In this document: positions 17,073-56,778 of the stretch, one piece after another
Position numbering within the stretch: the stretch's first letter is position 1
How the letters are laid out: each line of letters opens with the position of its first letter
Source: Phyllobates terribilis
Taxonomy: Eukaryota
Length of the DNA stretch: 64,000 nucleotides
Assembly: GCF_046119375.1 (NCBI RefSeq)
Contig: NW_027362764.1
Location: forward strand, 163,246,001 to 163,310,000
Direction of reading: 5' to 3'
Position numbers and translations under genes: made by a program
The notes under the pieces: generated by a model
The model's input: the letters and a program-made list of their open reading frames with translations, nothing else
Told to the model about the DNA's origin: nothing
Database searches by the model: none

Positions 17073-17119
17073 TCCCAGGTTGTGTGGTGGACGGCAATCT
17101 GGGAGTAGGTATTTCGTCC
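17060..17119 (+). other. -1 ribosomal frameshift signal: slippery G_GAA_AAC plus H-type pseudoknot
   Basis: Heptamer 17060-17066; 6-nt spacer; stem 1 17073-17082/17095-17104; stem 2 17089-17094/17114-17119. pol is in the -1 frame. Confidence 0.8.
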
Positions 17120-20100: not shown

Positions 20101-20443
20101 GCTTAAGAGGTATGTGGCGCCGGTGGTACCGTCACCTTTACCTCCCCCTCCAGTGGTGGTCAATGGTAACTTGGAGTTCCAGGTATCGAGGGTCATCGAT
20201 TCACGCTTTAATCGCCGGTCCCTTCAGTACCTGGTTCATTGGAAAGGGTATGGTCCTGAGGAGAGGATGTGGGTTCCTGCGTCGGATATTAACGCAGACC
20301 GATTAGTTCGGGCCTTCCACACGACTCACCCGGATAAACCTGGCCCTGAGGGTCCGGAGGCCCCTCGTAGAAGGGGGGGTGCTGTCACGGGTGTGTCGCC
20401 ACGAAGATCGTCACGAGTACACAGCCTGACTTCTCGCAGCTGA
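17069..20443 (+). pseudogene. pol: Pol (protease-RT-RNase H-integrase-chromodomain) with a single TGA at a Trp position (18323-18325)
   Basis: LLDSGA, YLDD, VDAS, GHPG..CGVC, SMDFI, SDRG, GPY, chromodomain QYLVHWKGYGPEERMW. ORFs 17069-18325 and 18410-20443 are in frame. The ORF reads into the 3' LTR. Confidence 0.96.
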
Positions 20444-24200: not shown

Positions 24201-26951
24201 GTGGAGAGGAAACACTAACGCCAATGGAAACCTCTCCTACAGGCCTAATGTCTTGGGATTCTCCAACCTTCACTGGACAAAGACTGTCAGGGGGTCCCAA
24301 ACCACCGCAGTGGGACCGCAATCCAATTTTGTGACTGAGTTCTAGCTTCTGCTTTTCCTGACGAACATAGTCATCCTTCATGGATTCTGTGCAGAAAGCT
24401 GCCTCTACAGGCTGGGGAACAGGAGGTCTTTGGGAGGACAGAACATGGCGTGACGGTTTACCTCTACGCCTTGCACGTCTGGACTGCCTCTTGAGGTTGG
24501 GAAGAGAAGTATTCTGTGGAGCATAGTCATCCTGTGTGGATTCTGGGTGGGCAGCAGTCTCTTCAGGCTGGAGGACTGGTAGGCTACCTACACACATTAC
24601 CCATCGGGTCTGCTCCGGGATATTGGGAAGGGAAGCTTTAGCAGAGGCTTCAGGATTAGGGTCATCGAAGACCATTAGAAAGGCCACCAGGAAGGCCTGC
24701 AGGTCAAAGACGATAGGATCCCATGCTTCCCATAGGGGGGTGATCCATTTCAAGGCGTCACCCACTAGGTATGACATCATAAATGCCACTTTAACCAGAT
24801 CGGTAGGAAAATAGTGAGCATAGAACTTGAAATGCAGCATGCATTGCTCCAGAAATGCACGGCTTCATTTTGGATCCCCATAGTACCGTGGTGGATCCGC
24901 AGGAACGAGTGCTGATAGATCCATTTGGGCTGGTGCGTAAATCGCCTGGGCCATAGCTTGAGAATTTTTTTTTCTTGGTGCACGTATTCGCCAGACAAGG
25001 ATTCAAAATGTCTCTGAGAGCGAAAGGCCGTGGGGCTCAACGAGAACCATGGACTGAGCAAACTGTTACGCTCGCGCTCGGACTGACTGGTGTGAGCGTG
25101 ATTAGTGATCCCACTGTACCATGAACCGAGGAGTGCCTGGAGGGGCGTAACTAAGTATCAATCTGATCCAACCAAGGTTGCACGGCGGCTCAGTCGACTC
25201 CATGAACCAAGGAGGAACCGAGCAGAGGGACCAGGTGCTACTCCAGGTCAGACCCCGGTCACAGCTATTGACCCACACCGGGCAATGCAGGAACAGGCGA
25301 ATACTGGTAAGCATGGCCAGTATGCAGACAGGTGGGTACTGGCAAGTACGGCTGGTATGCAGACAGGTGGGTACTGGCAAGTACGGCTGGTATACAGACA
25401 GGTGGGCACTGGCAAGCACGGCTGGTATGCAGACAGGTGGGCACTGGCAAGCATGGCTGGTATGCAGACAGGTGGGCACTGGCAAGCATGGCTGGAATGC
25501 AGACAGGGAGGTACTAGCAGGTTGGAGCGCAGGCTGGATAGGGTCCAGTACAGACTAGGAGACAGGTACAGAGCCGCAGATGCGGTAGACAAGCAGAGTA
25601 AAGCGAAACCGCCGGAGCGGAGGACAAGGCAGAGCAGAGAGGAACTGCTGGTGCGGTGAGCAAGCAGAGCGGAGTGAAAACCGCAGGTGCGGTGGACAAG
25701 GCAGAGCAGAGAGGAACCTTCGGAGCCGTGGACAAGGCAGAGCAGAGCGAAACCGCAGGTGAAGTGGATGAGGCAGAGCAGAGCGAAACCGCAGGTGCGG
25801 TGGACAAGGCAGAGCAGAGTGGAACTGCCAGAGTGGTGGGCAAGGCAGAGCAGAGAGTAGCCGCCGGAGCGGTGGATAAGGCAAAGCAGAGGGAAGCCGC
25901 CGGAGTGGTGGGTAAGTCAGAGCAGAGAGAAGCTGCCGGAGTGGTGGGTAAGGCAGAGCAGAGGGAAGCCGCTGGAGCGGTGGGCAAGTCAGAGCAGAGA
26001 GAAAGCACTGGGGCGGTGAGCAGCAGAGCCGAACAGGGCTGAAGGTGCAGGCAGAGAGGACAGGGCTCTGTTCACATGGAACAGACTGGAAAATACAGGA
26101 AGATGGCTAGAACACAGGAAGAAGATACGGAGGAAGGGAAAAGGTACAAGCAGAACCAGATACACACAAGGTACTTACTATGAAGTAGCAAGTGGGCACA
26201 AAACTCACAAACAGAAATACAGAGACAACGAGTTAGAGTTAGGTGCAGGTTCAGATACTGTAGGAAAAGGGAAGGTACGGACATAGCGACAAACAGGTAA
26301 CAGGCTAGGATACAGTTCAGACAGGAACTGCTACTGCAATGAGATACAAGAACGAGCCTGGGTATACAGCCCCTAGAGTGGTGGAAACAGACTAGAAGTC
26401 ACAGGTAACAGGCCTGGGTATACAGCCCCCAGAGTGGCGGAAACAGACTAGAAGTCAAAGATAACAGGTCTGGGTATGCAGCCCCCAGAGTGGCGGAAAC
26501 AGACCAGAAGTCAAAGATAACAGGTCTGGGTATGCAGACCCCAGAGTGGCGGAAACAGACTAGAAGTCAGAGATAACAGGCCTGGGTATGCAGCCCCCAG
26601 GATGGCAGAAACAGACAAGATACAGGACAAGACCTGGCAATTCAGTTGCAAAGACAAACTGAGTGAAGGTGTTGCTCAGGCACCTCCTTCTGGGTGGAGG
26701 GGGTTTAAATATCCAGTGACTCACAGCAATAGGCTGGAGACGCATTAGGGGTGCGCCCACAGCAGCTATAAGAATCAGGAAGTAACCGAGCCGCCGCCCT
26801 AAGCAGTCAGTCAAGAGACATGCACACAGCATGAACTGGAGCAAGGTTTGCAGGCTGGACTGACAGGTAAGATTGCGGTCTTACATAGTGGGAGGTGGTG
26901 CACTATGCGGGAGGTGGTGCACTATGCAAGCACGCCGCCAGGGATGTTACA
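21280..26951 (-). mobile_element. Non-autonomous gag-only LTR retrotransposon with ~1.85-kb minisatellite-rich LTRs
   Basis: LTRs 21280-23121 and 25064-26951 (TGTTAC..GTTACA). 5-bp TSD CAGAA. PPT AAAAGGGGGGGTAC on the minus strand next to 23121. The 1.94-kb interior has no pol motifs. Confidence 0.93.
24061..24954 (-). pseudogene. gag: Ty3-type gag remnant
   Basis: MAQAIY..PPRYYGDPK(stop)SRAFLEQC..KVAFMMSYLVGDALKW..VFDDP. Degenerate knuckle LRSHCGGLGP..LCP. Confidence 0.8.
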
Positions 26952-29049
26952 CAGAAACAGTGTCTGTGGGTGACACCACTGCTTCTTCCACTGTTGTGCG
27001 TGCACGCCAATCCCCTGTCCATGGCGCATGTGAAGATGCCTCTGTAAGCCAGGATCCAGTCGAACCTTGGGACGGACAAGTCCTCACGCCGCCGAGTATT
27101 GCGGGCCCTGGGTCAATCAGGGTTGCCCCCACATTCTACAGCTCCTGCATTTCCTCCTCCTCTTCAACCTCCATTTCCGAAATGACCACATCAGTCAGAA
27201 GCTGGAAGCACTGCAGCACTGCCTCAGCCAAGTGGCAGCAGGCTGTGCTGAAGCTAATATGCTTAGGTGACAAACTGCACACCGCTGAAAAGTTGTGGAC
27301 AGCTCCGAAAGAGCAGGCAGATCTGTGGCTGGCATTGCTGAACCTACAGCCAGGCATGGTCGTGTGTGACAATGGCCGGAACCTGATGGCGGCTCTGAAG
27401 CGAGGTGAGCTCACACACGTACCATGCCTGGCCCATGTGCTTAACCTCATGGTTCAGCTGTTTCTCAAAACCTATCCAGATCTGTCTTATCTGCTTGTTA
27501 ATGTACTCCGCGTGTGTGCCCATTTTAGAGAGTCGGCTACAGCTTCAGCCGCCCTTGCCATGCTTCAGCAGCGTTTGCAGCTTCCAGCTCACTGACTGGT
27601 GTGCGATGTCCCCACACGTTGGAACTCTACATTGCAGATGTTGGGAAGGATTTGTGAGAAGAAGAGGGCAGTTGTTGACTACCAGCATCAACACCGCCAT
27701 CGGTATTCAGGTCAGACTCCACACATTAGACCTCAGGAGTGGACATGGATGTCAGACATTTGTACCATACTCCAAAACTTTGAGGAATCCACCAAGATGG
27801 TGAGCGTCGATGACGCCATACTTAGCGTCACCATCCTGCTTCTCTGTCTTCTGAAATGCTCCCTGCTCACAATTAAAGAGGATGCATTGCAGGCAGAGCA
27901 CAATGAGATGGAGCAAATAACCATACAGGGTGATTCCACACAGCCCAGCCTTATCTCATCCCAATGTGGATTGGGTGACAATGAAGAGGAGGATGAGGAG
28001 GAAGAACAGGAGCTAGTTTCCTGCACTTTAGACGGTAATACCTGCACAACTGTCATACCGTGTGTTCAGCGTGGATGGCCTGAAGACAGGGAGGAGGAGG
28101 AAGAGGAGGATGAGGAGGATGAGGAGGATGAGGAGCAGAGGATGGTCAGTCGTCCTCTTGGTGAGGACATGGAAGTCTTGCCTTTTTGCAGTCTGGCACA
28201 CATGACTGAGTTTATGTTATGCTGCCTTTCCCGTGACCCTCACGTTGTCCAAATTTTGGGTGACAGTCATTACTGGTTGGTGACACTTCTAGACCCACGC
28301 TACAAGGAGAACTTTCTCTTATTTCCACGCAGGACAGGCCTAATAAATGGGTCAGTAGCAGAAGGCCCTTGTTGCGTAATTATTTAAAAAATTCACATCT
28401 GAAAACGCTGGTGGCAGAGGTCATAGTTCGTTGGACAACCAAGGAGTACAGGCGAGAGAGACACAAATGCAATTCAGAAGAGGCAGGGGAACACTGTCAA
28501 ACTTCTGGGACAGTTTTCTCAGACCCTCCCATCGCACAGGCCCTGAGGCGTAGGGTACTCTCACAATGAGGGAAAAGTTTCGGAAGATGGTGAGGGAGTA
28601 CCTTGCCGACCATACCAACGTCCTCTGTGATTCCTCTGTGCCTTATAATTATTGGGTATCCAAGCTGGACACGTGGAATGAACTGTCTCTCTACGCCTTT
28701 GAGGTCCTGGCCTGCCCTGCCGCTAGCGTTTTGTCAGAGCGAGTTTTTAGTGCTGCTGGTGGAATTATAACCGATAGGCGCATCCGCCTGTCAACTGAAA
28801 ATGCTGACAGGCTGACTCTTAGAAAAATGAACAAGCACTGGATTTGGCCAGACTTTTCAACACCACTGAATGATAGCAGCGTAGCACTGTCTTTTTTTGG
28901 GAGGTCTAACTCTATTTGCATGCACTTTTGTCTTCACACCCAGACATGGGTATAAGCTTCCTGATTTTGTCTATTTGCTCTGGTCCTCCTCCTTCTCCTC
29001 ATCCTCATCCTCTACCACCATATCACCACAATATCTACCATATCACCAT

Positions 29050-32345: not shown

Positions 32346-34471
32346 ACATACTATCATGTATGTTTGACTCTGAAACGCTGTGATGTTTCGGAGAGAAATA
32401 TAGTTTAAAAACTGCCGGGACCCGAGTGGTGCTGCAGACTAGTCAGACAGGTGTGTCCATGGCGGCTTCTCCCCGCCCTGGAGTAATAGGCCTCTCCTTA
32501 TTCCCGCACATAGGAAGAGACCTGTTAATCCAGGACACCGGGCGAGGAGAAGCTTTTAAAGTATGTTTTAAAACCTGTGGGGTGGCTTTTAAAATATGTT
32601 TTTCTCTGAAATGCTGCAATATTTCAGAGTAATACATGCCTGACTGAGATCATACAACCAGTGTCTGATACATGCTGCCCGTATATCGAGCAGCATGTAT
32701 CAGCTGTCAAGTTGTCTGTAAAGGGATTGTTTTGTGTCTGTTCTTCAGGACTGCACTGCTCTCTTGCCTCTTAGCTTCCTGCTTATCAGGGGGCGGTGCA
32801 CTTCCGAAGATGGGCAGTTTGGCTGGCAGCATGGCTGAGTTGCTGGGCTGAACTACGTGTTCTCTAGGGCTATGTTCACACAAGTTTTTTTTTGTCTGCA
32901 GCAAAACCTGATCTCCTGGCAGGAAAGAAAGCTGCATCAGAAATGCAGATTTTGGTGCATTTTTTGGTGCGTTTTTCAGCATCCCAAAAGTTCAGCTTTG
33001 CTTCCACCACAGAAGCATGAACACAGGTCACCAATGCAAGACATATGTGAAAACATATTAACCAGAATTTCAAATGTATCAGTCTGGGGAGGTGAATTGT
33101 TCAGGAATAGTTTTTCTAAGACACTGGCAGTGCATTGACTTTGTATGACACTATTTACTTTCACATTGTGGTCTGCCATTCAGTTGCACAGGCATTGTTC
33201 AATTTCACACCTCCCTGGGCCACAAGTATTGTTCAATATCACAGGTAGCTCAGCCAAAGTTTACACTGTACACATCACTAATTTAATTAAACTCTCCTAA
33301 TACAAGCTACCATCTCAGTGACCAAGACAAGATGATAAAATAACAAAAATAAATGTGTTTCTGTCATGGGTGTGTCAGGTTTGACAGACAGTCATTTTGG
33401 ATCCAGCTGTAGAATGTCGCTGCGGTGATCCAGCGGTGATCTCCTCCTTCTGCCGCTAATTAACACACCCTTGCTAGATCTTTAAATACCCTCAGTTTCT
33501 CCAGAGAGTTGCTGGCGATAGAGTTAATTCCCCTGTTCAGTTCTATAGTTCTGGCAGTCGGCTGGATTCTTCTTGGAGTTCCTTTGTAGATTCTGGTCGT
33601 CTTCTCTCTGGTGTCTTCTCAAAGCTAAGTGTATCCCCTTGTATGTTTCCCTTGTTTGTCTTTAGTTGCAGTGGGGCTGACTAGTGCTCACCCCTCCCAC
33701 TCCCAACCTAGGGCCTAACTCTAGGGTCAGCCAGGGCTAAGGTATCCTGTTCGGCTCAGGTATCCCAAGTCCAATCTTTCTGGCCCTGAGAGACAAGCTA
33801 TGAATTATTTCATTGCTGAGAGTCTGGAGAAGTTACATATCAGACCCTCATCTTCACCCGTGGTGGCAGGATTCTTCTTCGTTAAGAAGAAAGATGGGGT
33901 TCTCCGTCCCTGTTTAGATTTCCGGGAATTGAATCAAATTACTGTCCGAGATCCTTATCCTGTTCCACTGATTCCAGTTTTATTCAATCAGGTTGTGGGA
34001 GCTAAGGAGTTCTCCAAGTTGGACTTAAGGGGAGCCTACAATCTGGTAAGAATCAAAGAAGGGGATGAATGGAAAATGGCATTCAATACCCTGTGGGGCA
34101 TTTCGAGAGTCTGGTTATGCCTTTTGGTTTAACCAATGCACCTGCGGTGTTCTAACATTTCATAAACAATATTTTCCATCATTTAGTGGGCAGGTTTGTG
34201 GTGGTCTATCTGGATGATATTTTGGTTTACTCACCTGATTTTGAGACGCATCAGGGTCATGTTAAACAGGTACTACAGACAGTAAGAGATAAACTATATG
34301 CCAAACTTGAGAAATGTGTTTGTGCTGTTCAGGAGGTACAATTTTTGGGATACCTGTTGTCATCATCAGGTTTTTGGATGGATCCGGAGAAGATCCATGC
34401 TGTACTTGATTGGGACCGTCCAAGAACCTGAAGGCATTACAGTGCTTTCTGGGATTTACTCATTTTTACCA

Positions 34472-35012
34472 TAGGGAAAATATATATTCTTGTACCGTGC
34501 TAGCCAGTAGGTAGAAAAATATTTACATTTGAGAGTCCTCAGTGGTTGATACCTTTTAATGGCTAATTGAAAAGATGGTAACAAATTGCAAGCTTTCGAG
34601 ACTACTCAGGTCTCTTCATCAGGCAGAGTATACCACAAAAGCTGTAGAGTCACATATTTATACACAATAAGACACACAAGAAAAAAAAAATGAAATAGGT
34701 AAGACAGGTGATGAAAAACAGAGTTATTATGGAAGAGATAAACAGTTCTGGCTATAAATATTTTAGCAGTTAATAGATAAGGAGTGTGAAGGTTTTATTG
34801 TCCTGTGACCAGGTCCAGTGTTGTGATGGCCTCACAATTCTGAGGAGCACATTCCTTGATGTAGAATGACATAAATCCATGCGACACATTCATTCCTGCT
34901 CTGAAAGTGTTAAAGGTCATCATCAGTTTATATTCTGAGATTCTTCTTTCTCTTTGAGATTTGAAGTTACCTTTTAATACTAGTAATTTCATATCTTTTA
35001 TGCTGTGATGAG
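34472..35012 (-). mobile_element. Penelope-like element 3' fragment (GIY-YIG C-terminus plus pseudo-LTR)
   Basis: HHSIKDMKLLVLKGNF..RERRISEYKLMMTFNTFRAGMN resembles the PLE endonuclease C-terminus (R..E..GLN type). The downstream region carries a hammerhead core. Confidence 0.75.
34587..34625 (-). ncRNA. Minimal type I hammerhead ribozyme motif
   Basis: UGC-CUGAUGA-A-GAGAC-CUGAGUA-GUCUC-GAAA-GC-UU-GCA: intact core boxes, 5-bp helix II, palindromic AAGCUU helix III, 3-bp helix I. Confidence 0.75.
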
Positions 35013-35015
35013 GGG

Positions 35016-35617
35016 AACATCGCTGCTGAGTCACGGTTTTGGTGACGCAACAGTGACCTCACCAGCGATGTCGCTATATGTGACACTTTGCAGCGATCAG
35101 GCCCCTGCTGTGAGGTCGCTGATCGCTGCAAAATGTCCTGGACCATTTTTTGGTCTTTGCCCTCCCGCTGGTCAGCACACATCACTGTGTGTGACCAGCG
35201 GGACCAGCGATCAGGCTGGTAACCATGATAAACAGCGGGTTACTAGGGGCACACGCGCACTTAGTAACCCGCTGTTTATCATGTTTATCATGGTTACCAC
35301 TCTGCTACGGTGAGCGGTAACCTCCCGCTCACCGTAGCAGAGTGGTAACCATGATAAACAGCGGGTTACTAGGTGCGCGTGTGCCCCTAGTAACCCACTG
35401 TTTATCATGGTTACCAGCCTGTTCCTGCTTCAGCAGGCTGGTAACCAGGAGCAGGACATCGTGGAAAGATTCTTTCCATGATGTCGCTGCTCCACTGATC
35501 GCTGGTGAGCCTGCCTGTTTGACAGCTCACCAGCGATCACATAGCGACGCAGCAACGATCCCTGACAGGTCGTATCGTTGTCGGGATTGCTGTAGCATCG
35601 CTAAGTGTGACGGGGCC
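35016..35617. mobile_element. Harbinger-like fold-back MITE with nested palindromes (left end truncated)
   Basis: Right end GTGTGACGGGGCC|TTA. Perfect 36-bp inverted arms around 35315. Confidence 0.75.
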
Positions 35618-35744
35618 TTAACTCTGTGCTTGCTGGTCATTAAGGTGGTAAGGCAACTGCGGACCTCCTTTCTCATCATTTTTGGTGGATGGGGTTGCAT
35701 CAGGATGTGGTTGAACATGTGTCTTCTTGCAATATTTGCGCACG

Positions 35745-36688
35745 TGTAATGGACACAAAAGGGCCTCTAAGAGGAATCTTACAGGGTGCTTCAAAGATAG
35801 AGAGAGATTGCCATCTGCTGGTCAGGCACAGTCATGCGGAACCGAGATGTACAAGAGAAGTTGAAGGGGGAGCAGATTTAGACGCTGGACTCAGTCAGGT
35901 GACTTCCAGGAAGGTACAAGAGGCCAGCGCGCCAAGCCTGAGGGGTTTGTGGTGCCAAGCAGCAGAGAGGAGCAGACGTGCTCCCTGCGTGCTGAGAAGC
36001 CCCGCGTGGCAGGTTTAAGCCTGAGGCCTGCGAGGTGCCACAGCCGGGCACCGGTGAATGAGCTCCGGATCCCTCACAGATGTGACTCGAGTGTTGTGCC
36101 TACTGAAGAGAGTCGGAACCTGCTTGCGGTGCTGAGTGAGTTTGCGGAACCCGAAGTCGCCCGCCGACAGACAAAGTCTGGACCCCCCTACCCTCGGCTT
36201 GAGAGACTGCCTCCAACGGCCAGGAAGAGAGGAGTTGGGAGACTGCTGAGCCAGGAAAGTCACGCCAGTGAAAGCAAAGGAGCTGCATGCGTGAACAGGG
36301 CCGTCACTTCTACTGTTCACTCACGGTACCAGGGTCAGTTGGGTTTAGGTACTCAGGTTGGGTGGGGAGCAGTTGGGGCGGAAGAAGCTAAACTTGTTCT
36401 AATTGATTTTGTCCGGAAGAGACTTGCAGCCTAGCGGGAATAACCGGTGACCCCCACTAGGGCCCTATACAGAGATAAAGAACTGACGTGGTGACTCCCC
36501 TGACTGGGTGCACCACATTACTTTGAGAGACTTTGTATTTTGCTAATATTTCAAATTACCATTCAATACCCTTGTTGTTATCCCCTTGTTAAGAATACCT
36601 GTTTTATATATACATAAACTGTTTATAATCATCTCCCACTCTCCTTGCCTTGTGTCTGTGTGCGTTGCATTCCGGCACCTGCATTACA
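35745..36688. mobile_element. Solo LTR (944 bp)
   Basis: TGTAAT...ATTACA termini. 4-bp TSD CACG. The integrase frame (CNICAR|SNVSH) resumes after it. Confidence 0.9.
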
Positions 36689-37812
36689 CACGTTCTAATG
36701 TATCGCACAATCGTCTGTCTGGTCCTTTTCTGCCGCTGTCTATTCCTAGCAGACCATGAACACACTTGTCCATGGATTTTATTACTGACCTACCGGTATC
36801 TGCAGGCAAGATTGTGTTACAGGTGGTTTTAGATAGGTTCAGGAAAATGGTTAATTTCATCACATTACCAACACTTCCGAATGCCAAGTCTCTTACTCAG
36901 GTAATCATTAACCCTACAATGCGTATCGAGGGCCTTTTACGCCCCGGTGCTTACTTTTTTGCAATTATCTGCAAAATTACTTTAGTTAGAATTTTGAAAC
37001 TCTAGGTATTCCTCAAGTATGTCGTTGTTGGTAATATCCAGTTGTTCATATAATTTTTTTGATAGGCATTTTGGTGTAACAATGGTTTTTTGGGGAAAAC
37101 CATATCTGTACGGAACTGGGGCCTTTCAGGCCCCCGCTATTTTTATCATGTACTCAGCAGTGTTTGTGTCTCAAGCTACTTTATTTGTAGTCAGAGTTGC
37201 TGGTGGAGGGGCCAGGGGGTGGATCATGCCATGTGAGGATGTCATGTGATTTTGGGAGGGAGTGATAAGGTCTAAAAGGAAGACGTATCGCTTCTGCAAA
37301 AAATAAGTCCTGGAAAAATATCTCAAAAGAGGAACTTTATGCATATATTGGACTTTTACTGCTGGCAGGGAGTCAAAAATCGTATGCTGTTCCAATAAGA
37401 GAATTATTTGTGGACCCACTTTCTGATCCACACTATAAAGCGACAATGGCAGTGGACAGATATGAGGAAATTAGAAGAAACATTCGATTTGATGATAAGC
37501 GAACTTGTGCAGCGAGGTTCCAAACAGACAAATTAGCCCCTATCAGTTATATCTGGAACATATTTATCAAAAATTGCACCAAACTTTATAATCCTAGTAC
37601 TAATGTTACAGTAGATGAGCAACTTGTACCCTTCAGAGGACGTTGCAAGTTCATACAATACATGTCCAGTAAACCAGCCAAGTATGGAATAAAAATCTTC
37701 TGGATGTGTGATTCTGCAAATTATTATGGCATAAATGGCCTTATCTACTGTGGCAAAGAAGTTGATGCTACAGTACAGAAAGATCTAGGGTCTCAGATTG
37801 TGAAAACACTTG

Positions 37813-39110
37813 TGTGGCGCCCCTGAGGGTTCAGTCACCATAGGGGTACTGCACCTCAGTTCGAGGTGTGGTATCTCCTCTCCCAGGTAAGGATGGAGCA
37901 TCTCACAGGACCCCACTTCACCATTCAACACTACACCACTCCTGTCCTGAAGGGGGCCTAAATGCACCAGGGTGCTGCCCCGGCCCGGGATAGAGGGGAT
38001 GGGGGGAACCAAAAGATAGGGGGAACCATGTAGTGGGTGAGGGTGGAGGACACACTTTTAGGAAACACTTATTTTTTTATATTTAATCTACGGCCATCTT
38101 AAGTTCAAGGTCTTTGATTGTGATATTCGTCTGTGATTGTGGTCTTCGTCTCTGATTGTGGTCACCCGCCAGAGTCCAGCAGGCCGCAGCCGACTGAAGA
38201 TACACGGTCCTTGTTCTCTGGCCTTGAGACGAGGAGCAGGTCAGAGTTAACCACTGTCTCTACCCGGTCAAGGTCCTTACCTAAGAAGGCCTGGAGGGGA
38301 GCGGAGGAGACAGGCTCCACAGGCAAAAGGATCTTAGGGGGATACGGACGGAGCGGCCTACGCCACCTGTATTCTTTATTCTGGCCTAGTCAGAGGTATT
38401 CCTGCTGCAAAAGGGGTGACCGGCCCCCGATATCTGACTTTGTTACTTCACGTCTCAGCCGGAAAAGCCCGGAGGATTAGTGGATCCCAGGGGGGATGCG
38501 GACGGAGCGGCCTACGCCACCTGTATCTCTCTACCTGTGTTTTATCCAGTGGGACCCGGCTTTACACCTTGTTCTAACCACACACAGTCAGGAGAAGACT
38601 TAGTGGGAGAACAACCTTACAAAGGAGAGGAACACACACCAGAGGGGTCTCGACAGGTGCTCCTGATCTAGCTGGAAAGTGCTGAACCCCCTTCCCGGTG
38701 GCCGCAGTACGCCGTGTGTATCAGAGGGAAGCTTTGCGGCTAAAGTTCATCTGAATGTGAGTAAAAACCCTGGATGACTTCACACACCGCCTCAGCCTGT
38801 TATTTCCTGCATGGCACTGCACCCACCACTCTTCCTCACACTGCCCTGAGGCCTGCTCCGCCTGCGGGGAGCCGTATTCATCTAAGCTGCCCGTAACACC
38901 GGCCTCAGTGGACTGAAGCAGCGCTGGTGCTCATCACCGGAAACCGTAGGTGGCGTAGTTGAAAAATACCACTCTTACTTGAAAGCCCATTAAAAGCCTT
39001 TTATGTGACCGCCCTGGGCATGGACCGGGTCCAGGCCACGACTGCCTCCCCCGCTGCCCCTGCACCGACCCGGCTCCAAGTAACCCCATTTCTCAGGGAG
39101 GGCCTCACAC
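37813..39110 (+). mobile_element. Solo LTR (1298 bp), related to the 47210-52001 LTR family
   Basis: TGTGG...TCACA. 4-bp TSD CTTG. The start (CCCTGAGG..GGGGTACTGCACCTC..GAGGTGTGGTAT..GGTAAGGATGGAG) aligns to the minus-strand start of the 47210 LTR. Confidence 0.88.
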
Positions 39111-39510
39111 TTGAAGTACCAATATACGATTCAGGTAGAAACATTACCATGGACAATTATTTTACCAATGTTGCGCTGGGCAATTTTCTGCTTGAAAAAG
39201 CTGTTACACTTGTTGGTCCTATGAAGCAAACTGATGAGAAATTCCTCAAGCAATGAAACACAATCCACAGCGAGCACTTTATGAGAGTGTATTTGGTTTC
39301 AATAACAAAGCGACACTGGTATCTTACAAAGCGTAGAAGGAGAAATCCATTATATTACTCAGTAACATGCATTATGACAGCAGTATTGACATCAATGACA
39401 GGAAATTGAAACCAGAAATCATCCTGTATTACAATAAGACTAAAGGACATGTAGACAAAATGGATGAATTGGTGGGAGAATATTCATGCAAGAGGCAAAC
39501 AAGACGTTGG

Positions 39511-40660
39511 TGTAACGGGTCGGGGAGGTGGAACCTCTGAGCAACTATACAAGGGGGCAGTCCTTGTAAGGAAGCGGGTGGCTCCCAGGGAAGGCGGGCA
39601 GGTAGTCACGGCTAGTGACGGGGACAGTCTCTGGGTAGAAGGGCAGGAGGACACGGCAGGTGACAGGGACAGTCTCTGGGTAGAAGGGCAGGAGGTCACG
39701 GCAAGTGACGGGGACAGTCTCTGGGTAGAAGGGCAGGAGGACACGGCAGGTGACAGGGACAGTCTCTGGGTAGAAGGGCAGGAGGTCACGGCAAGTGACG
39801 GGGACAGTCTCTGGGTAGAAGGGCAGGAGGTCACGGCAAGTGACGGGGACAGTCTCTTGACAGGCGGGTGGTCACGGCAAGTGACGGCAGAGCCTCCAGG
39901 TAGGCTAGCAGGCAGGTAGCAGGTGGACGCTCCCAGGTGAGCGGACAAGAGTCTCTGGACAGGCAGGTGGTCACAGCAAGTGACGGCTCCAGGTAGGCTA
40001 GCAGGCAGGTAGCAGAGGAGCGCTCCCAGGTGAGCGGGCAAGAGTCTCTGGACAGGCAGGTGGTCACGGCACGTGACGGCAGAGCCTCCAGGTAGGCTAG
40101 CAGGCAGGTAGCAGGTGAGCGCTCCCAGGTCAGCGGGCAAGAGTCTCTGGACAGGCAGGTGGTCACGGCAGGTGACGGCAGAGCCTCCAGGTAAGCAAAC
40201 AGGCAGGTAGCAGGTGAGCGCTCCCAGGTGAGCGGGCAGACTGATCCATAGACAGACTGGCAGGGCTGGTAGGCAGACTGTCGGACCGCAGATAGATAAG
40301 TAACAGGCAGGAATCTGGCAGGTGACTGGCAGGTGACTGGCAGGTAACTGGCAGGTAACTGGTAACGGGACCTGAGGGCTGAAGCAGAATTGAAAGGCTT
40401 TGCAACAACATTGCTTGGGCATCTCCATTTTGGAGGAGGTGCCTTATATATGGTGAGGTCCTCCGGCCATTGGCCGGGGACTCCTTAGGACGGCGCGTGT
40501 GGCCCCTTTAAGAGAGGGGGAGCGCGCGCGCGCCCTAAGCACAGAGGCCGGGAAGCAGCGCGCGCTGCCAGCAGAGCGGGAGGAAGCCGCCGGGCACGGA
40601 GCGGAGAGGTGAGGGGAACGGCGTCCCTGCCTAGCAGGAGGCAGGGACGCCGACGCTACA
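39511..40660 (-). mobile_element. Solo LTR (1150 bp) with ~60-bp internal tandem repeats
   Basis: TGTAAC...GCTACA. 5-bp TSD GTTGG. Orientation inferred from a TATATAA on the minus strand near 40445-40451. Confidence 0.88.
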
Positions 40661-46640: not shown

Positions 46641-48847
46641 CATAGTTCCCAATCTTCCACAATCCAGTGGGATAATACCAGCTTTAGGTCTCTGAGCCGC
46701 TGTACCAGGCGGTGAGCCAAGTGTCCCACCCTGACATCATCAGGGTAGTGCTGCACAATATGAGCACTGACCTGCTGAGCTCAAACTGAGCAGCGCTGTA
46801 CAGGTGAGCCGCAGTATCCCCGGAGAAGACAGAAGCGGTTTATCACCACTATCTGTCTTCTCTTCTGCAGCCACAAAGCAGTCAGTGAGTGCCATGTGCT
46901 GAATGGAAGCTTAACAAAGCCAAGGATTCTGTTACACCTAGTGATCACATGATCGATGGGTCTCTGCCTGACACATGCACCTGGGATAAAATGATCTTTA
47001 TTCCTCCTGAGAGCCACCAACTTAAAGCCTCGCTGACACATCAGCATGACTGATAGTCGGCGACTCCAGGGAAGAATAAAGCTCATTTTCTCCCGGGCGC
47101 TTTCATAACACTCTTAACCTGCAGAATAACCCTATAGTGCATATGCAGATTAATAGTGTTATCCAACTTGACAAGTTCCCCTTAAATAGCAAATACATAT
47201 TTATTATAATGACGCGTCCCCTGGGCCAGTGTTGTTTGGGGGATACCCGGAGCCGGATCAGATGGGGGTTGTAGTCTCCGAGTGGCGGTGACCCGGTCCG
47301 TGCCCAGGGTGTCAAGCTCAGTGTGTGGCAGTCCTACGGATGTTACTGGATGTTCTTTAGTGTCGACTACGCCACCCGTTGATTTGCGGTCACTACGGCC
47401 GCCGCTGCAGCAGGGTCCGCTGAGGCTGGTGGTGTGTGTGCAGCTCAGGTAGTATAACCCCCAACGGGAGGGGTATAGCCTCAGGGGGTCAGTTGCAGAG
47501 GATGGTGGTTGTGGAGGTGCAGTGAGGATGGTAATGAAACTCAGAGTCGGGCTGTGCAGTTCAGGGTCTTTACTTACTGCTGTTGTTCTGGTCACTCCGG
47601 CCTTGAGTGACCACCCGAGCCGTGCTGCGTCCACCAGGTCCTGGACTCGGCCAACCCCCAGGTGATTCTGGAGCGTGGTCCTGAGCTCCCTTTCTGACTT
47701 GTCCTTCTCCCTGGCCTTCCCCACCAGGGATCCACCTAAGTCCGGCTCCCTCGGGCCTCTTGTTGGTAAACCCTTGTCTCTGGGTTCCCTGACCCTATTC
47801 TTGGTTTGGCTTCCGGGTGGATTTAGTGGGTGGTCGTGGCAGATCCTGCCCACGACCTCCGGTCTCTGGCTAAGGATTAGGGCCCTCCACCAGCTTGGGA
47901 TCCGGTACCCTTGTGCCAACTCTTCACCCTCTGATCTAATTTTGGGTTCTTGGAGTTCTCTCTTCTCCCCCTCTGGGTCCTTCTTTCTCCTCTCTCTCTC
48001 TCTTGGCCTTGGAGCTGGCTGAGCTGCTCTGCTTGTCTGACCAAACCTCTACAAAAGACCCTGTTCTAAGATGGTTCCCACCTTATATACTCCCTCTATG
48101 TGTGAGCTCAGGTGACCAGCACCCAATGAGCTCCTAGCTTTACCCAGACTGCTCCCCCTATCTGCCCCTACACTACTGGGATGTTCCACCCCCCCTCCCA
48201 CTCCAGCCAGGGACAGACACTGTCGTACCTGCACATTTCTCTAGTGGGAGTACCATTGATCTGTCCCCCGGAAATGGGATGTATGTAGTGCATGCAGCCT
48301 ACTGAGCTCAGTTCCACACTCCATCCTTACCCGGGCGTGGAATACCACACCTCTGGCTTGAGGTGCAATACCCCTGTAGCAGCCGAATCCTCAGGGTGCT
48401 ACATTCCCCCCTGGTAAATCACACCACGTCCTCGGGCTGTTAAAGATAAAAACATCCAAAACCATACAATTATTTTTCATAAACATAAACATATAAAACA
48501 TCACATATATTATCAGCAATAAAACTTTTCATATAAATAACATTCTTGTAAACATTCCTGTCTCTGGTTCCTCCGGTCACGGTGCAACTTGTGACCGGGT
48601 AAAGTGCGACAGTCTCTTGAAGAAACACGGTTTTCCTATAAAACCAGTAGAGGGCGCTTTAGGAAGCGCAACTATATACAAAGGGGATATGGCCGCTCTC
48701 AGTCCTCGGCCAGGTAATAGGGACACACGGGTTAACAGTTCACACTTTGTCCCAACGGGGAACATATTTTAAATAAGTAACAGTTCTTGGTACCCCGACG
48801 GGCAACTTTATACAGTCTCTCTTTACCGTACTTCAACGACGGCGTCC

Positions 48848-50626
48848 TCATGCTCTTTCTTGTTGGTTGGTTTCAGTTTCAGACCCGTCCGGGTCCTCTT
48901 GCTCCTCCTCACACCGCAGCTCCTCCTCCGTCAGGCGATGTACATGGAGGGCGTAGGGTCCTTTGGCACACTTGTGCCGGGTGAAGGTGACCTCGTCCCC
49001 TACATAAAGGTCACGACCTCTGTGTCCCTCCGGCAGATGGCTTTCTACGTCTCTGCGGGTGACAAAGACGTCGCCGGGGGTATGAGGGTCTCTTATGAAG
49101 CCCCACCCATGCTGCAGGTTGAATTTGATCACAGTCCCGGTGGTACGGGGACCATGAGCTGCACGGGGATTCCTCCTGGTCCGGCTCTTCTGCCCTGCGC
49201 TCTGTTCTTGCAGCCGCTGCTCTCGGACCCGCCTCTCTCTCCGTTCTCGCTCGAAGTCTGCCAACTGCTGGCGGCAGCACTCCACTCGCTCTGCTGCGGC
49301 TGCCCGCGTTTCTTGAGTGAACCCCATGAGATCTCCTCCGGTGGGGTCCCACTCGAATTGTGCTTCTTCTAGCGGGAGCGGGGTTCTCCTGACAGGCTTC
49401 GGAACCGGAATCAGGGGCTCATCTAGGGGTCTTTCTTTCCGGAGTCGGGGATGGTGAAACTCCGGTGGCCACACAAAGGGCTGCCCATCCGGGCACGTAT
49501 GCTGGGCGAACAGGTCCTCACCCAGGTGCGGTACTTTAGGTGTTATGGGCGCTGTGGTGGTAGCGGCGCCCGGGTTGACCAGGCCTTGCGACCAGGCTTG
49601 GGGCACGCTAAAGGAAAAGGGCACCGTAAGAACGGCGGCGCCCGTGGTTACTCGGCCCTGCGACCAGGCTGGTGGCTCCGCGGAGGTAGGGGGCGCTGTT
49701 GGAATGGCGGCGCCCGGGTGTACTAGGCCTTGCGACCAGGCCGATGGTATTTCCTGCTTTGCCGCGCTCAGGGTTGAGGCGCGTGACGTCACAGGGGTCG
49801 CGGCCGCGGTTTCCGGTTGAGGCCTAGTCGGCGGCGGTGACGATGCAGCGACGGGCACGGCAGGGGGAACTTCGGGCTCTGCGACGGGGAGCTGGGGCAG
49901 GCACGCGGTTTCCCGGCTCGGGGTAGAAACGTCCCCTTTACCTGCCTCCGTCCGTTCAGCTCCCTTCTCGGCGCCGTCTCCGGCCTTCAGTCCTCCTGCA
50001 CCATCCTCAGAGGCGGTCTGTCTCCTCGTCTCGGGTGGCGTGCTCCGCTGACGGGTTTCGGTCTGCTGGGCCATCTCTCGGCTCCACTCCGCCAACGTCT
50101 CTCGCTGTACCCGGGCCATCCTCCGTGCGAGGCGCTCCAGCGCAGTCTGTGCACACTCCCGGTCTCGGGGGAGCTGTGCCAGGACCTCCACTAGGCCTAG
50201 TGGGGTTGTGGCTTGTAGCAGGCTCCTGACCACTGGGTCGGTGCTGCCTGATTCTCCCTCCATCTCCGGGTAGGCTTTCTCTGGACTCCTCTCCAGACTT
50301 GTCTCCGGGTGCGCTCTCTCCAGACTGCTCCAGGCGGCACCCATCTTCGTTCGTTTGTTTAGTCTCCGCCCACATTGAGGGTGGTCCCGGGGCAACTTAG
50401 TGATTGTCAGTTCCAGGGGCAGTTCTCTTACGCTGATGGACACTTCCAGCATCACAGTCTCTGTTGGTGGGCGCGGTTTCCGCTTTTGGCGCCATTCTTC
50501 GACCTGGCCCACGATGGGAGGTGACCTCTTGCCACCCTCTGGCACGCCCATAATGGCGTCCGCTCTTCCAAGGCGGGAAATCTTCGGAAATGGCGGGAAT
50601 CGTCTCCCAGTGGCGGGAAACTCCAT
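48848..50626 (-). CDS. 592-aa protein (first in-frame AUG; frame open from 51517) with a C-terminal cold-shock domain at 48932-49138
   Basis: Uninterrupted ORF. GTVIKFNLQHGWGFI (RNP1), GDVFVT (RNP2-like), LYVGDEVTFT..KGPYALHV match the CSD pattern of Y-box/Lin28/CspA proteins. The rest is Pro/Ala-rich or coiled-coil-like. The start codon is uncertain; the AUG at 50551 has a better Kozak context. Confidence 0.8.
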   Translation of the reverse strand: MEFPATGRRFPPFPKISRLGRADAIMGVPEGGKRSPPIVGQVEEWRQKRKPRPPTETVMLEVSISVRELPLELTITKLPRDHPQCGRRLNKRTKMGAAWSSLERAHPETSLERSPEKAYPEMEGESGSTDPVVRSLLQATTPLGLVEVLAQLPRDRECAQTALERLARRMARVQRETLAEWSREMAQQTETRQRSTPPETRRQTASEDGAGGLKAGDGAEKGAERTEAGKGDVSTPSRETACLPQLPVAEPEVPPAVPVAASSPPPTRPQPETAAATPVTSRASTLSAAKQEIPSAWSQGLVHPGAAIPTAPPTSAEPPAWSQGRVTTGAAVLTVPFSFSVPQAWSQGLVNPGAATTTAPITPKVPHLGEDLFAQHTCPDGQPFVWPPEFHHPRLRKERPLDEPLIPVPKPVRRTPLPLEEAQFEWDPTGGDLMGFTQETRAAAAERVECCRQQLADFERERRERRVREQRLQEQSAGQKSRTRRNPRAAHGPRTTGTVIKFNLQHGWGFIRDPHTPGDVFVTRRDVESHLPEGHRGRDLYVGDEVTFTRHKCAKGPYALHVHRLTEEELRCEEEQEDPDGSETETNQQERA

Positions 50627-50785
50627 GGATGGCGGGAAAAAGCTGCAAATGGCGGACAACCGGCGGGAAACGACCTGTGATGGGGTCCGTTGGCGGGGAC
50701 CCTCCGGAACCGGCGGGAGACTTCTTTTTAAGGTAACGGTGAACTTCTCTTCAGGCACGCAGTACCCGGTTGTTGCGGGCACGTT

Positions 50786-50803
50786 ATCCTGCCGACTACG
50801 CCA
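50786..50803 (-). other. Primer-binding site complementary to tRNA-Ser (AGA/TGA) 3' end
   Basis: TGGCGTAGTCGGCAGGAT, 18/18 complementary to ATCCTGCCGACTACGCCA (vertebrate tRNA-Ser 3' end, from recall), 4 nt from the 5' LTR. Confidence 0.9.
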
Positions 50804-51680
50804 AAGTTGACGCGCCCCCTGGGCCAGTGTTGTTTGGGGGATACCCGGAGCCGGATCAGATGGGGGTTGTAGTCTCCGAGTGGCGGTGACCCGGTCCGTG
50901 CCCAGGGTGTCAAGCTCAGTGTGTGGCAGTCCTACGGATGTTACTGGATGTTCTTTAGTGTCGACTACGCCACCCGTTGATTTGCGGTCACTACGGCCGC
51001 CGCTGCAGCAGGGTCCGCTGAGGCTGGTGGTGTGTGTGCAGCTCAGGTAGTATAACCCCCAACGGGAGGGGTATAGCCTCAGGGGGTCAGTTGCAGAGGA
51101 TGGTGGTTGTAGAGGTGCAGTGAGGATGGTAATGAAACTCAGAGTCGGGCTGTGCAGTTCAGGGTCTTTACTTACTGCTGTTGTTCTGGTCACTCCGGCC
51201 TTGAGTGACCACCCGAGCCGTGCTGCGTCCACCAGGTCCTGGACTCGGCCAACCCCCAGGTGATTCTGGAGCGTGGTCCTGAGCTCCCTTTCTGACTTGT
51301 CCTTCTCCCTGGCCTTCCCCACCAGGGATCCACCTAAGTCCGGCTCCCTCGGGCCTCTTGTTGGTAAACCCTTGTCTCTGGGTTCCCTGACCCTATTCTT
51401 GGTTTGCCTTCCGGGTGGATTTAGTGGGTGGTCGTGGCAGATCCTGCCCACGACCTCCGGTCTCTGGCTAAGGATTAGGGCCCTCCACCAGCTTGGGATC
51501 CGGTACCCTTGTGCCAACTCTTCACCCTCTGATCTAATTTTGGGTTCTTGGAGTTCTCTCTTCTCCCCCTCTGGGTCCTTCTTTCTCCTCTCTCTCTCTC
51601 TTGGCCTTGGAGCTGGCTGAGCTGCTCTGCTTGTCTGACCAAACCTCTACAAAAGACCCTGTTCTAAGATGGTTCCCACC

Positions 51681-51687
51681 TTATATA
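51681..51687 (-). promoter_or_regulatory. Putative TATA box (TATATAA) of the 5' LTR
   Basis: Motif match; an equivalent TATAAAA sits at the same position in the related solo LTR (~7469-7475). The TSS is not demonstrated. Confidence 0.55.
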
Positions 51688-52009
51688 CTCCCTCTATGTG
51701 TGAGCTCAGGTGACCAGCACCCAATGAGCTCCTAGCTTTACCCAGACTGCTCCCCCTATCTGCCCCTACACTACTGGGATGTTCTACCCCCCCTCCCACT
51801 CCAGCCAGGGACAGACACTGTCGTACCTGCACATTTCTCTAGTGGGAGTACCATTGATCTGTCCCCCGGAAATGGGATGTATGTAGTGCATGCAGCCTAC
51901 TGAGCTCAGTTCCACACTCCATCCTTACCCGGGAGTGGAATACCACACCTCTGGCTTGAGGTGCAATACCCCTGTAGCAGCCGAATCCTCAGGGTGCTAC
52001 AATTATGTA

Positions 52010-53360: not shown

Positions 53361-53799
53361 TGTATCCACACAACATTAATAACCTGAAAGTATCCCTATT
53401 AAGACTTTCCTCTCTTCCATTAGTCCAAGGCAAATTGTGACACTGTTCCAACATGCCTTGGTCTGAGGGCAGAGAGGAACATTGAGGAGACAGACTGAGG
53501 GCAGAGAGGAATGCCGAGGAGACAGAAGAGACAGTCCAAGAACAGAGGTATACTGAGGAGACAGCATGAGGGCAGGGAAGAATGTTGAGGAGACTTCCTG
53601 AGGGCAGAGAGCACTGAGGAGATAGGTAAGAATAAGAACTTAGGTTTGAAATGTGATGGACACCTGGACAGAAAATGGACAGAGCTCATTATAGTTAGTG
53701 GGGACAGTCGGGCTCTGCTCTGTGTTTGATGACAAATTCATCCCCATCGGTTTTATTGTCTGCTTCTATAATGGACAGGACTGCAAAAGCTTTTAGTAG

Positions 53800-56778
53800 T
53801 GTTGGAATATGTTTAGTGCAACTACTCCATTCCTGTGTATGTAAATGTTCTATTGCTAGGTTTGTGTATTGTCTATAAAGTTAAAAAAAAAAAAACTCCC
53901 ATAGGCTCACACACAGAAAAGACCATGTGACTGTGTTCAGTTTCCTGTGTCTGTGCATGAGAGGAGAAGCAGCCTGCTGATGCTGCACAGAGACACTTAA
54001 GATATGTATATTCCAGATTACACACATATCCTATCATATCTGTACCTGTTTATAGCTAATTAAAGCTTTGTTATGTTGTCAACACACTTTGAGAGTATTC
54101 TGAATGATCCGCTGCCAAGAGTTTTTGGGCCCAGCGTGACACAGAACCCTGGAGTGACACAGAAGAGTAATACAGCAACAGAAGTGCAAAGCAAAAGCAG
54201 CACAGAGCAACAGAGAAGATATCCACAAGCAGGGATCACTGCAAGTTCTCAGTGCAACGTCTCACCAATCAGAATTATCAATCTTAGGAATTTAAGGTGA
54301 AAATGCTGCTCATAAGAGAAGGTATGTGGAAATATACGCAGGAACAAGTGCATCATCCATTACCAGATGTTTGGCTAGAGAAGGATCAGAAAGCACAAAG
54401 CACTATCACCCTCAGTGTAGATGATGATCAGATTGTGCATATATGCAAATGTGCAACTGCAAAAGAGATGTGGGATGAATTACAGAAAGTGCATGAAAAA
54501 TCAAATCTCAGCAATAAGCTTTATCTCATGATGAAACTGTATTAGTCAAAGCTAAGTGATGGGCAGAATATGCAGGACTATATAAGAAACACCCTAGAGA
54601 TTGTGGAGCGTTTCAGGGGCATTGGAGAAGAAATTAAAGACTTTAATGTTGCAGCACTACTATTAAGTGGTCTTCAGAAAGTGATGACACACTTGTCACT
54701 GCACTAGATGCACGGCCAGATGATGAGCTCACACTAGAATATGTCAAAGGCAAGTTTGTAGATGAATTCAAGCGAAAAACACACAATGTAAGCAGCAGTA
54801 ATGAATCTAGAGCAGAAACAGCATTAAAGACAAAGGACTTTCCTAAAAATAAGAGCAATCTAAGGGAAACTCATGAATGTTTTGTATGTAGAAAGCCCGG
54901 CCACCTTAAAGCAGACTGCAGAATTTGGAAAGCAAGAATGAGTCAGCTTAAAAAGCAGAACAGTGATCAAAAGGTGAAAACAGCTGTAGGGGAAAAGTCA
55001 GCATGTGTTGAAACTGCATTTAATACCAGTACAGGCTCATCTACAAAGCATATGTGGTGTATAGACTCTGGTGCTAGCAGTCATATGACGAATAACAAGG
55101 ATTTCTTCACTGACCTTGATGAATGCAAGTCAGAAAAGGTCATCTTAGCTAATGGTCAATATGACTTCAGAAGGAGTAGGAGACGGCAACCTCCACTGTC
55201 CAGTTTCCTCAGCACAAAGCAGAAAGATCCCAGTAAAGGATGTTCTCTATGTTCCTAGTCTTGAAAGCAATCTTCTGTCAGTAAAGAAGCTTATGCAAAA
55301 AGGGACTGTAGTTACTTTTAAAGACAACAGCTGCATTATATCAAAGAAGGGTCACACTCTTGCAGAAGGAAAAATCCAAAATGAACTTTATCAGCTAAAA
55401 TGCAAAGAAAGAGTGTACAGTGCTAGACAAGATCTGCATAAGAACTGTATCCTTATATGGCACAGACGTCTTGGGCACAGAGACCCAGAAGCAATAAGGA
55501 AGCTAGGTCAACTTGCAAATGGTGTGGAAATCAAGCAATGTAGTCAAATGGTGAAGTGCACTAGCTGTCTTAAAGGGAAAATGTCCAGAAAATCCTTTCC
55601 TAAAGTAAGCACCACTACATCTGCACAGCCACTGAATTTGATACACACAGATGTTTGCGGTCCAATGAGTGTTCAAAGGATATTTGGAAGCAAAACGTTT
55701 GTGTATGTTCCCAAAGAAAAATGTTCCAAGTGGGAATCACTTGCAAAGCAAGGAGTCCTGGTGGGCTATAGCGAAACTCAAAAGGGATACAGAATCTTGC
55801 ACCGAGAGACCAACACAGTAACAATCAGCAGAGACGTAATGATTGATGAGAACTCAGTTTCGCTCAAATTCCATGAAGTTACACCAATCATTCAAGCCAA
55901 GAAACAAGATCAAGAATCTCAATCACCAAACCCAGACACTGAAAAAGAAAACACTGAAGTCTGGATAAGCTCTGAAGCCAGCAAGAAAGAAACAGAAGAA
56001 CCATGTCAACCTCCAGTCAGGAGATCAGAAAGACCAAACAAAGGTATCCCAGCTCAATGCTTTTCTTATATGGTCAGAACACTTCCTGAGCCAGAGCCAC
56101 AGTCATGGCAAGAGAGGCAAAAGCTTCCTGTCCACGAGAAGCAGAATATGTGTCAGCTGCTTATGCAAGTCAAGAAGTTATTTGGTTGAAACAACTTTTG
56201 GAAGATTTCGGCAAGCCACTAGCTCAGCCAACAGTTATCTATGAGGACAACCAAGGATGTATTAAACTTGCCAGCAGTGAGAAGATTAGTGCAAGGACTA
56301 AACACATCGACATTAAACATCACAACTTATGTGACTTAGTAGAACGTGGTGTACTAGAGTTTGTTTATTGCGAGTCTGACAAGATGTTAGCTGATGGTAT
56401 ATCAAAAACCATTGCCAAGAGCCAATTTTGAGGACCTCAGAACCGCAATGGGACTAACAGGATAAGTAGTTGTTTAGTGGGGGTGTTGTAATATGTTTAG
56501 TGCAACAACTCCATTCCTGTGTATGTAAGTGTTCTATTGCTAGGTTTGTGAATTGTATTGTCTATAAAATTAAAAAAAAAAAAACTCCCAGAGGCTCACA
56601 CACAGAAAAGACCATGTGACTGTGTTCAAGTTTCCTGTGTCAGTGCATGAGAGAAGTTGCCTGCTGATGCTCCACAGAGACACTTAAGATATCATATCTG
56701 TACCTGTTTACAGCTAATTAAAGCTTTGTTCTTTTGTCAACATGCTTTGAGAGTATCCTGAATGATCCGCTGCCAACA
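53800..56778 (+). mobile_element. Ty1/Copia LTR retrotransposon with internal deletions
   Basis: LTRs 53800-54120 and 56484-56778. 5-bp TSD AGTAG. PBS-like GTTTTTGGGCCCAG at 54121-54134. PPT AGTGGGGG. Confidence 0.95.
54250..56431 (+). pseudogene. Copia gag-pol remnant: Gag/CCHC, protease, partial integrase, RNase H tail; RT absent
   Basis: CFVCRKPGHLKADC, WCIDSGASSHM, WHRRLGH, IHTDVCGPM joined directly to RIFGS, then EAEY..IYEDNQG..RTKHIDIK..LADGISK. Confidence 0.92.

Follow-up and report, generated by a model that had tools for sequence, protein, structure and literature searches.

A poison-frog LTR retroelement whose single gene encodes a cold-shock-domain protein under purifying selection

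In a 64,000-nucleotide stretch of the Phyllobates terribilis genome (hereafter the window), a first-pass annotation made from the letters alone had noticed what it read as an LTR retroelement, the only gene of which encodes a protein ending in a cold-shock domain (CSD). As a rule, non-autonomous LTR elements either lack coding capacity or retain gag. The locus raises the question of what kind of element this is, by what means it is propagated and what a CSD could do for it. The whole element occupies positions 47210-52001 of the window on the minus strand and is composed, in 5' to 3' direction, of the following parts:

50808..52001, minus strand: 5' LTR of 1,194 bp (TGTA...GTCA), with a TATA-like box at about 51681-51687.
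50786..50803, minus strand: primer-binding site (PBS) of 18 nt, the complement of the tRNA-Ser 3' end, same as that of the likely helper described below.
50572..50718, minus strand: leader with six TCCCGCC repeats, a candidate packaging signal.
48848..50626, minus strand: single open reading frame (ORF) with two candidate starts, the first ATG (592 aa) and Met95 at 50344 (498 aa).
48404..48412, minus strand: polypurine tract AGGGGGGAA, same as that of the likely helper.
47210..48403, minus strand: 3' LTR of 1,194 bp, with 5 substitutions relative to the 5' LTR.

The two LTRs are direct repeats with TG...CA ends, and their 99.6% identity marks the window copy as a recent insertion. Its 4-bp flanks, ATAA and ATTA, agree at three of four bases. 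Host loci ending in the complement of the PBS proved to be tRNA-Ser genes with AGA or TGA anticodons in 6/6 cases (ARAGORN), while an earlier set of loci checked for the primer tRNA had contained no tRNA gene (0/6). With LTRs, PBS, polypurine tract, target duplications and cis signals common to an autonomous partner, the element belongs to the LTR retrotransposons, and the first-pass assignment is borne out by the LTR pair, the tRNA-Ser PBS and the polypurine tract. Between the LTRs of the window element gag, pol and env were not found; it is therefore neither an autonomous Ty3/Gypsy element nor an endogenous retrovirus, and the gene for the CSD protein is indeed its only one. This ORF is uninterrupted (592 aa plus stop), as had been stated, but does not fill the interior, of which it covers 1,779 of 2,404 bases. 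The leader folded no better than shuffled sequences (z -1.08), and the element had no match in Rfam.

Further elements are present in the window. A separate Gypsy element at 15571-21008, unrelated to the CSD element, has 627-bp LTRs of 99.5% identity, frames for gag and pol and the 5-bp duplication GGAAC. Positions 53799-56692, presumably a copia-like element, comprise direct repeats of about 210 bp (91.5%) and broken gag-pol frames. We tentatively read 668-4314 and 26864-28387 as broken hAT-type transposases and 4997-5611 as a Tc1-like frame.

The protein encoded by the ORF can be divided into five regions:

50042..50236, minus strand: conserved N-terminal helical block, about residues 131-195, two short helices and one long; dN/dS 0.20-0.37 (residues 95-190).
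49367..50026, minus strand: Pro/Ala-rich linker, low confidence or disordered where modelled (to residue 309), loosely constrained; dN/dS 0.36-0.44.
49172..49315, minus strand: long charged Arg-rich helix, residues 438-485, directly before the CSD; dN/dS 0.06-0.18 (residues 421-494).
48932..49144, minus strand: CSD, residues 495-565, nearest to Y-box proteins; dN/dS 0.05-0.11.
48851..48931, minus strand: short acidic tail, 12 Asp/Glu in 27 aa.

Residues 496-563 matched the Pfam CSD family PF00313 with 33.1 bits (E 5e-8; curated cut-off 27), and the C-terminal 110 aa alone reached 37.6 bits (E 2e-9). The ORF matched no further Pfam family at E<=1. An AlphaFold model of the last 174 aa comprises a long helix followed by five strands, with pLDDT values of about 77-93 over the domain. 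When the modelled CSD was submitted to Foldseek, CspA (rmsd 1.8 A), YBX1 and YBX2 were recovered with TM scores of 0.77-0.88 over the target; bacterial CSDs ranked first, and YBX1/YBX2 were about 31-32% identical in the structural alignments. The presence of a CSD, as originally noticed, is thereby confirmed, and only its extent, given as 48932-49138, had to be corrected to about 48932-49144. The Arg-rich helix in front of it is a possible coiled coil, judging from the model. The acidic tail of the window copy stops a few residues before the ends of sister copies, which have a GGRRR-like motif there.

To which CSD family is the domain related? On its own, the window sequence gives similar scores for bacterial and for Y-box domains (23-27 bits). 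A profile built from eight element-type proteins scored YBX1 with 43.7 bits and YBX2 with 41.9, followed by CspA (35.1), Lin28A (22.4), CARHSP1 (15.3) and CSDE1 (11.1). Alignment of the window CSD needs gaps of 1 residue against YB-1 and of 5 against a Csp, and the CSD of a second lineage of elements (see below) aligns with YB-1 ungapped over 69 columns, scoring 30 as compared to 19 or fewer for other CSDs. The phenylalanines of RNP1 and RNP2 are kept, while the strand-1 Trp and the RNP2 His of YB-1 are replaced, and nucleic-acid binding may thus be weak or altered. An Arg two places after the former His position is invariant in eight aligned sequences, and strand 5 of element-type CSDs usually carries an aromatic residue. 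Y-box proteins are defined by a near-invariant CSD followed by a long alternating basic/acidic tail. By profile score the element CSD is closer to YBX than to other CSDs, but with about 32% identity and an acidic tail of 27 aa the protein is not itself a member of this family. Lin28 proteins are defined by a CSD followed by two CCHC knuckles; given the lack of a zf-CCHC match in the ORF and the weak CSD score, this identity was rejected, so that of the earlier "Y-box/Lin28-type" label the first half stands and the second does not. Taken together, sequence and profile comparisons strongly suggest a captured and remodelled Y-box-like CSD.

CSDE1 was also considered as the source of the domain and dismissed, since it reached only 11 bits in the profile comparison and fell outside the element group in a tree. 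In this rough tree, which contains no YBX sequence, element-type CSDs cluster separately from CSDE1-like proteins and others with several CSDs, at a support of 91/95 (unstarred; bootstrap not settled). The top PF00313 matches in the genome are intronless CSDE1-like multi-CSD copies, which we take to be CSDE1/UNR from their multi-CSD layout. At G000:C1:734432000-734451999 (L154-L155), such intronless copies are partly duplicated and resemble CSDE1/UNR retrocopies.

A gag remnant could still reside in the N-terminal part of the protein. However, the N-terminal helical block matched neither a capsid nor any other family, and searches of Pfam and the ESM Atlas for a hidden capsid in the N-terminus were negative; otherwise the Atlas returned only CSD-type clusters, all below 0.8, which serve as leads only. 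The ORF matched neither the gag of the likely helper nor Pfam gag or zf-CCHC families. Among 1,578 ORFs from helpers and other loci, a profile of the N-terminus matched solely another CSD ORF, and a single-sequence model of residues 95-309 contained no capsid-like bundle (pLDDT 60, a weak test). As neither a capsid nor a CCHC knuckle was found by Pfam, helper-gag and model comparisons, a hidden capsid and an identity as a TR-GAG element, i.e. a gag-retaining one-ORF LTR element, were rejected.

Is the window copy a solitary curiosity? A search of the 10.6-Gb genome with the last 130 aa returned 40,146 first-look candidates, and the best 150 scored were 95-100% identical. All 20 close copies that were fetched match in LTR and interior; 15 have both LTRs whole, with 2-9 LTR substitutions, and their target duplications are perfect in 15/15 (14 of 4 bp, one of 5 bp). 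In a second set of sister copies the duplication is perfect in 15/16, the remaining one being unscorable. The exact pattern of LTR end plus primer site occurs 65,013 times, and the reversed control not once. The first 38 listed junctions, which derive from the first 4.8 Mb of one chromosome and are not a random sample, were inspected together with two rare spacer variants. Of these 38, 16 have a CSD match (2 partial), 2 are family members without detectable CSD, 17 carry gag-pol and 3 fit no class clearly; both spacer variants carry gag-pol. Scaling by 16/38 yields about 27,000 copies, which is of the same order as the 33,000-40,000 first-look candidates and which, at about 4.8 kb each, amounts by rough extrapolation to the order of 130 Mb or about 1% of the genome. 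Older subfamilies, whose CSDs are 48-77% identical, have the same build wherever an LTR pair is visible. No pol was present between the LTRs in 20 close copies, 20 divergent loci and 16 junction-sampled copies; where pol was encountered near divergent loci, it was situated outside the LTR pair, belonged to a separate nested element or accompanied a locus at which no LTR pair was detected. In one case (L073), pol beside the element was rejected as a part of it for lying outside the LTR pair. Tandem arrays of the CSD element at about 3.6-kb spacing with shared LTRs were observed at G000:C2:157472384-157483562 (L014-L017) and also in the second lineage.

The CSD is under strong purifying selection. 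For dN/dS, a comparison that the first-pass annotation had proposed, we used eight copies chosen by primer site with an open frame spanning the ORF (8/16 with CSD match); the window copy is one partner in every pair, and the values are not independent. At synonymous distances of 0.2-1.6, the ratio for the CSD was 0.05-0.11 in 8/8 copies, with bootstrap upper bounds of 0.10-0.29, and the second lineage gave 0.09 and 0.16. Values for the CSD of close copies were not relied on, because these copies were picked by protein identity and their dN is biased low. Across subfamilies, the CSD is kept at the 48-77% identity given above and the flanking parts diverge. The annotation had regarded disruption or neutral evolution of the ORF in most copies as evidence against its reading; instead, 128 of the best 150 copies have an open frame of at least 500 codons without stop in the matched part, and selection on the CSD is purifying. 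Could the ORF nevertheless be a captured host gene fragment that is carried along without function? Many older copies are broken, as this would predict, but the low ratios at such synonymous distances already contradict it, as does the conservation of the CSD amid diverging flanks, and we consider it scarcely credible. The element is a real, abundant and recently active non-autonomous LTR element of the Ty3/Gypsy type with a selected CSD gene.

Of the 19 copies with gag-pol, 12 were extended, and those with both LTRs measure about 7.9-8.1 kb. They encode a PNMA-like gag (Pfam PNMA) with a CCHC knuckle, followed by PR-RT-RH-IN, and their LTRs are 94-99.8% identical, indicating an age similar to that of the CSD element. 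The last approximately 365 bases of the element's 5' LTR are about 71-74% identical to the LTR of this Gypsy family, with a common terminal GGCCCAGGGG(G)CGCGTCA-like motif, and the first 58 leader bases are 91-95% identical in most comparisons. TCCCGCC repeats are present in 2-6 copies in the Gypsy leaders and absent from the coding regions. PBS, polypurine tract and 4-bp target duplication are common to both, the duplication being found in 8/9 Gypsy copies. A CA follows the target duplication in 13/15 CSD elements vs 3/8 copies of the Gypsy family (flanks of L079-L116; small sample), and owing to this mismatch the true helper may be only part of this family or a different one. From the shared cis signals, we infer that this Gypsy family is the likely helper that mobilises the CSD element.

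The helper also bears on the start of the CSD protein. Upstream of the ORF, its frame continues without a stop into the LTR, giving 932 codons between stops. The leader repeats overlap with residues 1-94, for which dN/dS is 0.20-0.85 and six of eight intervals include 1, and Met95 sits at the position of the helper gag ATG, both in AAGATG context. These observations suggest a 498-aa protein. In the closest copies, dN/dS in residues 1-94 is about 0.15-0.5, and the upstream ATG may accordingly be used in the window subfamily. On this mixed evidence, translation may begin at Met95 (50344) instead of at 50626. In comparisons of L084-L113 with the window ORF, synonymous distance climbs within pairs from the 5' end (about 0.2) to the CSD (0.2-1.6); this gradient suggests mosaic recombination or a constraint at the RNA level near the leader.

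Via a distant homologue, a second lineage was found that has the same PBS, 4-bp duplications and LTRs of about 1.03 kb unrelated to those of the window element. Its one ORF can be aligned with that of the window element in the CSD only, at 37% identity over 84 aa. Exact junctions number 591, and of three copies fetched two are whole and one is degenerate. The leader lacks TCCCGCC repeats, and a helper for this lineage was not found. A third, divergent CSD type at L156:4326-5108 is close to database protein P0135; inspection of 10 kb revealed no LTR pair. Relatives in the database carry the labels Phyllobates terribilis, Ranitomeya variabilis, R. imitator and Anomaloglossus baeobatrachus, and there is one further cluster. 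These homologues are filed as uncharacterised host genes, one being auto-labelled "CSD domain-containing protein" in UniRef with no link to an element; by their similarity, the relatives from three poison-frog genera are probably elements as well.

One might ask whether the ORF is the accessory gene of an undiscovered autonomous CSD-bearing Gypsy element, or a second segment that supplies a protein needed by the helper. The near 1:1 ratio of element to helper in the sample would fit, the occurrence of one CSD type in two lineages whose LTRs are unrelated points to a module that is old and mobile, and related metaviruses have an RNA-binding domain in Gag, according to the portions of PMC11011659 covered. 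Yet a CSD was found in 0/12 extended helpers. The candidate autonomous element with CSD at L059/L076 was rejected, because the gag-pol upstream of the CSD there is a nested insertion with its own 960-bp LTR pair. Moreover, no pol-fused or longer CSD homologue was present among 7,998 scored candidates of 962-2,745 aa, a weak test. We therefore regard this explanation as very improbable.

How could the CSD protein serve the element? We propose that the element takes capsid, reverse transcriptase and integrase from the co-resident PNMA-type Gypsy family of about 8 kb and that, in place of gag, it would contribute one protein built around the captured Y-box-like CSD. This protein would act preferentially on its own encoding RNA, binding and coating it, possibly as an oligomer by means of its helices, and the coated RNA would be kept stable or delivered to helper particles better than that of a non-coding parasite. 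Long-term purifying selection in a helper-dependent element would mean that copies are more prolific if their protein works, and this argues for action mainly on the own RNA. A freely shared protein would be expected to breed CSD-less cheaters. Of the 18 members of the family at the 38 junctions, about 7 are broken or deleted, but the three internally deleted copies belong to different subfamilies and have different breakpoints and thus do not represent a spreading CSD-less family in the sample, which we count in favour of cis action. Two of them have nearly identical LTRs and intact target duplications, and RNA without a CSD may therefore have been mobilised at least once. In HIV, the metabolism of viral RNA and the output of virions are supported by host YB-1 (PMC6040738), and a private copy of the domain could plausibly be useful. 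Overall, we give an even chance to the proposal that the protein, through presumed binding and cis preference, coats or delivers the element's own RNA in a helper-dependent cycle, where it may act in the germline. Contigs from sequencing runs cover the element; these runs may be DNA and have no bearing on expression.

Four roles for the protein had been suggested initially: to replace the nucleocapsid, to protect or route the RNA, to recruit the particles of a helper, or to counter host silencing. The first cannot be upheld. An element unable to make particles has no Gag of its own whose nucleocapsid could be replaced, a hidden capsid in the N-terminus was not found, and the likely helper keeps its own CCHC knuckle and lacks a CSD. 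Protection or routing of RNA and recruitment of helper particles fit best. As to the fourth, the protein might shield transcripts from piRNA or decay, or store them in the oocyte like maternal mRNPs, with no recruitment of particles. Y-box proteins mask maternal mRNA in frog oocytes, and the CSD is akin to theirs by profile and alignment. Gypsy RNA is also abundant in ova of Oophaga pumilio, as stated in the sections of PMC6278860 covered. A general suppressor, however, is a shared good that should decay into cheaters, yet selection is strong. Furthermore, Y-box proteins use their alternating basic/acidic tail for masking, and the element protein lacks it, making this explanation unlikely in our view.

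Alternatively, the protein could act as a satellite-style hijacker that binds helper RNA or Gag and represses helper packaging or redirects capsids to the small genome. The conserved N-terminal helical block without family match could be a module for protein binding, and in the sample element and helper occur in almost equal numbers (16 to 17). Still, the helpers are abundant and young and any interference must be incomplete; we rate this possibility as decidedly unlikely. Co-folding of the N-terminal block with helper Gag scored 0.00, which has no bearing on binding either way.

In a more far-reaching view, the elements would form a satellite-like class of LTR elements, old enough to comprise lineages whose LTRs are unrelated. 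Such a class would have taken up a Y-box domain of the host as a dedicated adaptor for winning packaging into the particles of another retrotransposon; it would be a parasite equipped with a hijacking protein, and one that contributes some 100 Mb of DNA to the genome of a poison frog. We put this forward tentatively, as a possibility somewhat against the odds. A host-derived RNA-binding domain under strong selection implies that a limiting step of retrotransposition, such as RNA survival, routing or choice in packaging, can be improved by a parasite. In the repeat annotation of poison frogs most repeats are unclassified, according to parts of PMC12208295, and the homologues are filed as host genes; the finding therefore bears on the evolution of genome size and on gene annotation in these frogs.

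Among known CSD proteins, YBX1/YBX2 (FRGY2) provide the best-scoring match to the element profile; unlike them, the element protein has its CSD at the C-terminus, lacks a long basic/acidic tail, shares only about 31-32% identity and is encoded by an intronless, mobile gene. ORF1p of LINE-1, an autonomous non-LTR element, combines a coiled coil with an RNA-binding domain of the RRM fold and acts on its own RNA. On the best reading, the frog protein would work alike, a functional resemblance for which no homology is claimed. We found no CSD-encoding LTR element in the literature searched, including the covered parts of PMC6278860, PMC6431247, PMC12822217, PMC12208295, PMC13570524, PMC4585706 and PMC11011659, which agrees with the initial remark that no such described family was known to its author; Repbase and Dfam were outside this search and may hold a catalogue entry. 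The word "cold" is absent from the main texts, as far as covered, of the frog and transposon papers checked, including PMC4585706, with the sole exception of a publisher's name in one reference list. TR-GAG and other one-ORF non-autonomous LTR elements of plants likewise have the order LTR-ORF-LTR, lack enzymes and need an autonomous partner, as described in portions of PMC13570524; TR-GAG retains gag, whereas the frog ORF has no detectable link to gag and encodes a host-type CSD. Xenopus 1A11 and Xretpos are also frog LTR elements, and 1A11 encodes one 71-kDa protein that is expressed in embryos. By its description in the sections of PMC4585706 covered, 1A11 is set apart by a Gag-like protein and tens of copies, in contrast to a CSD and tens of thousands. 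PNMA-type Ty3/Gypsy elements (Metaviridae), to which broad group the helper belongs by its Pfam PNMA match and CCHC knuckle, have a Gag of the order RBD-CA-NC (parts of PMC11011659). There, the RNA-binding domain is RRM-like and fused to the capsid, while the frog CSD stands alone in a separate, non-autonomous element; the arrangement of this Gag shows that elements of this kind can profit from an additional RNA-binding domain.
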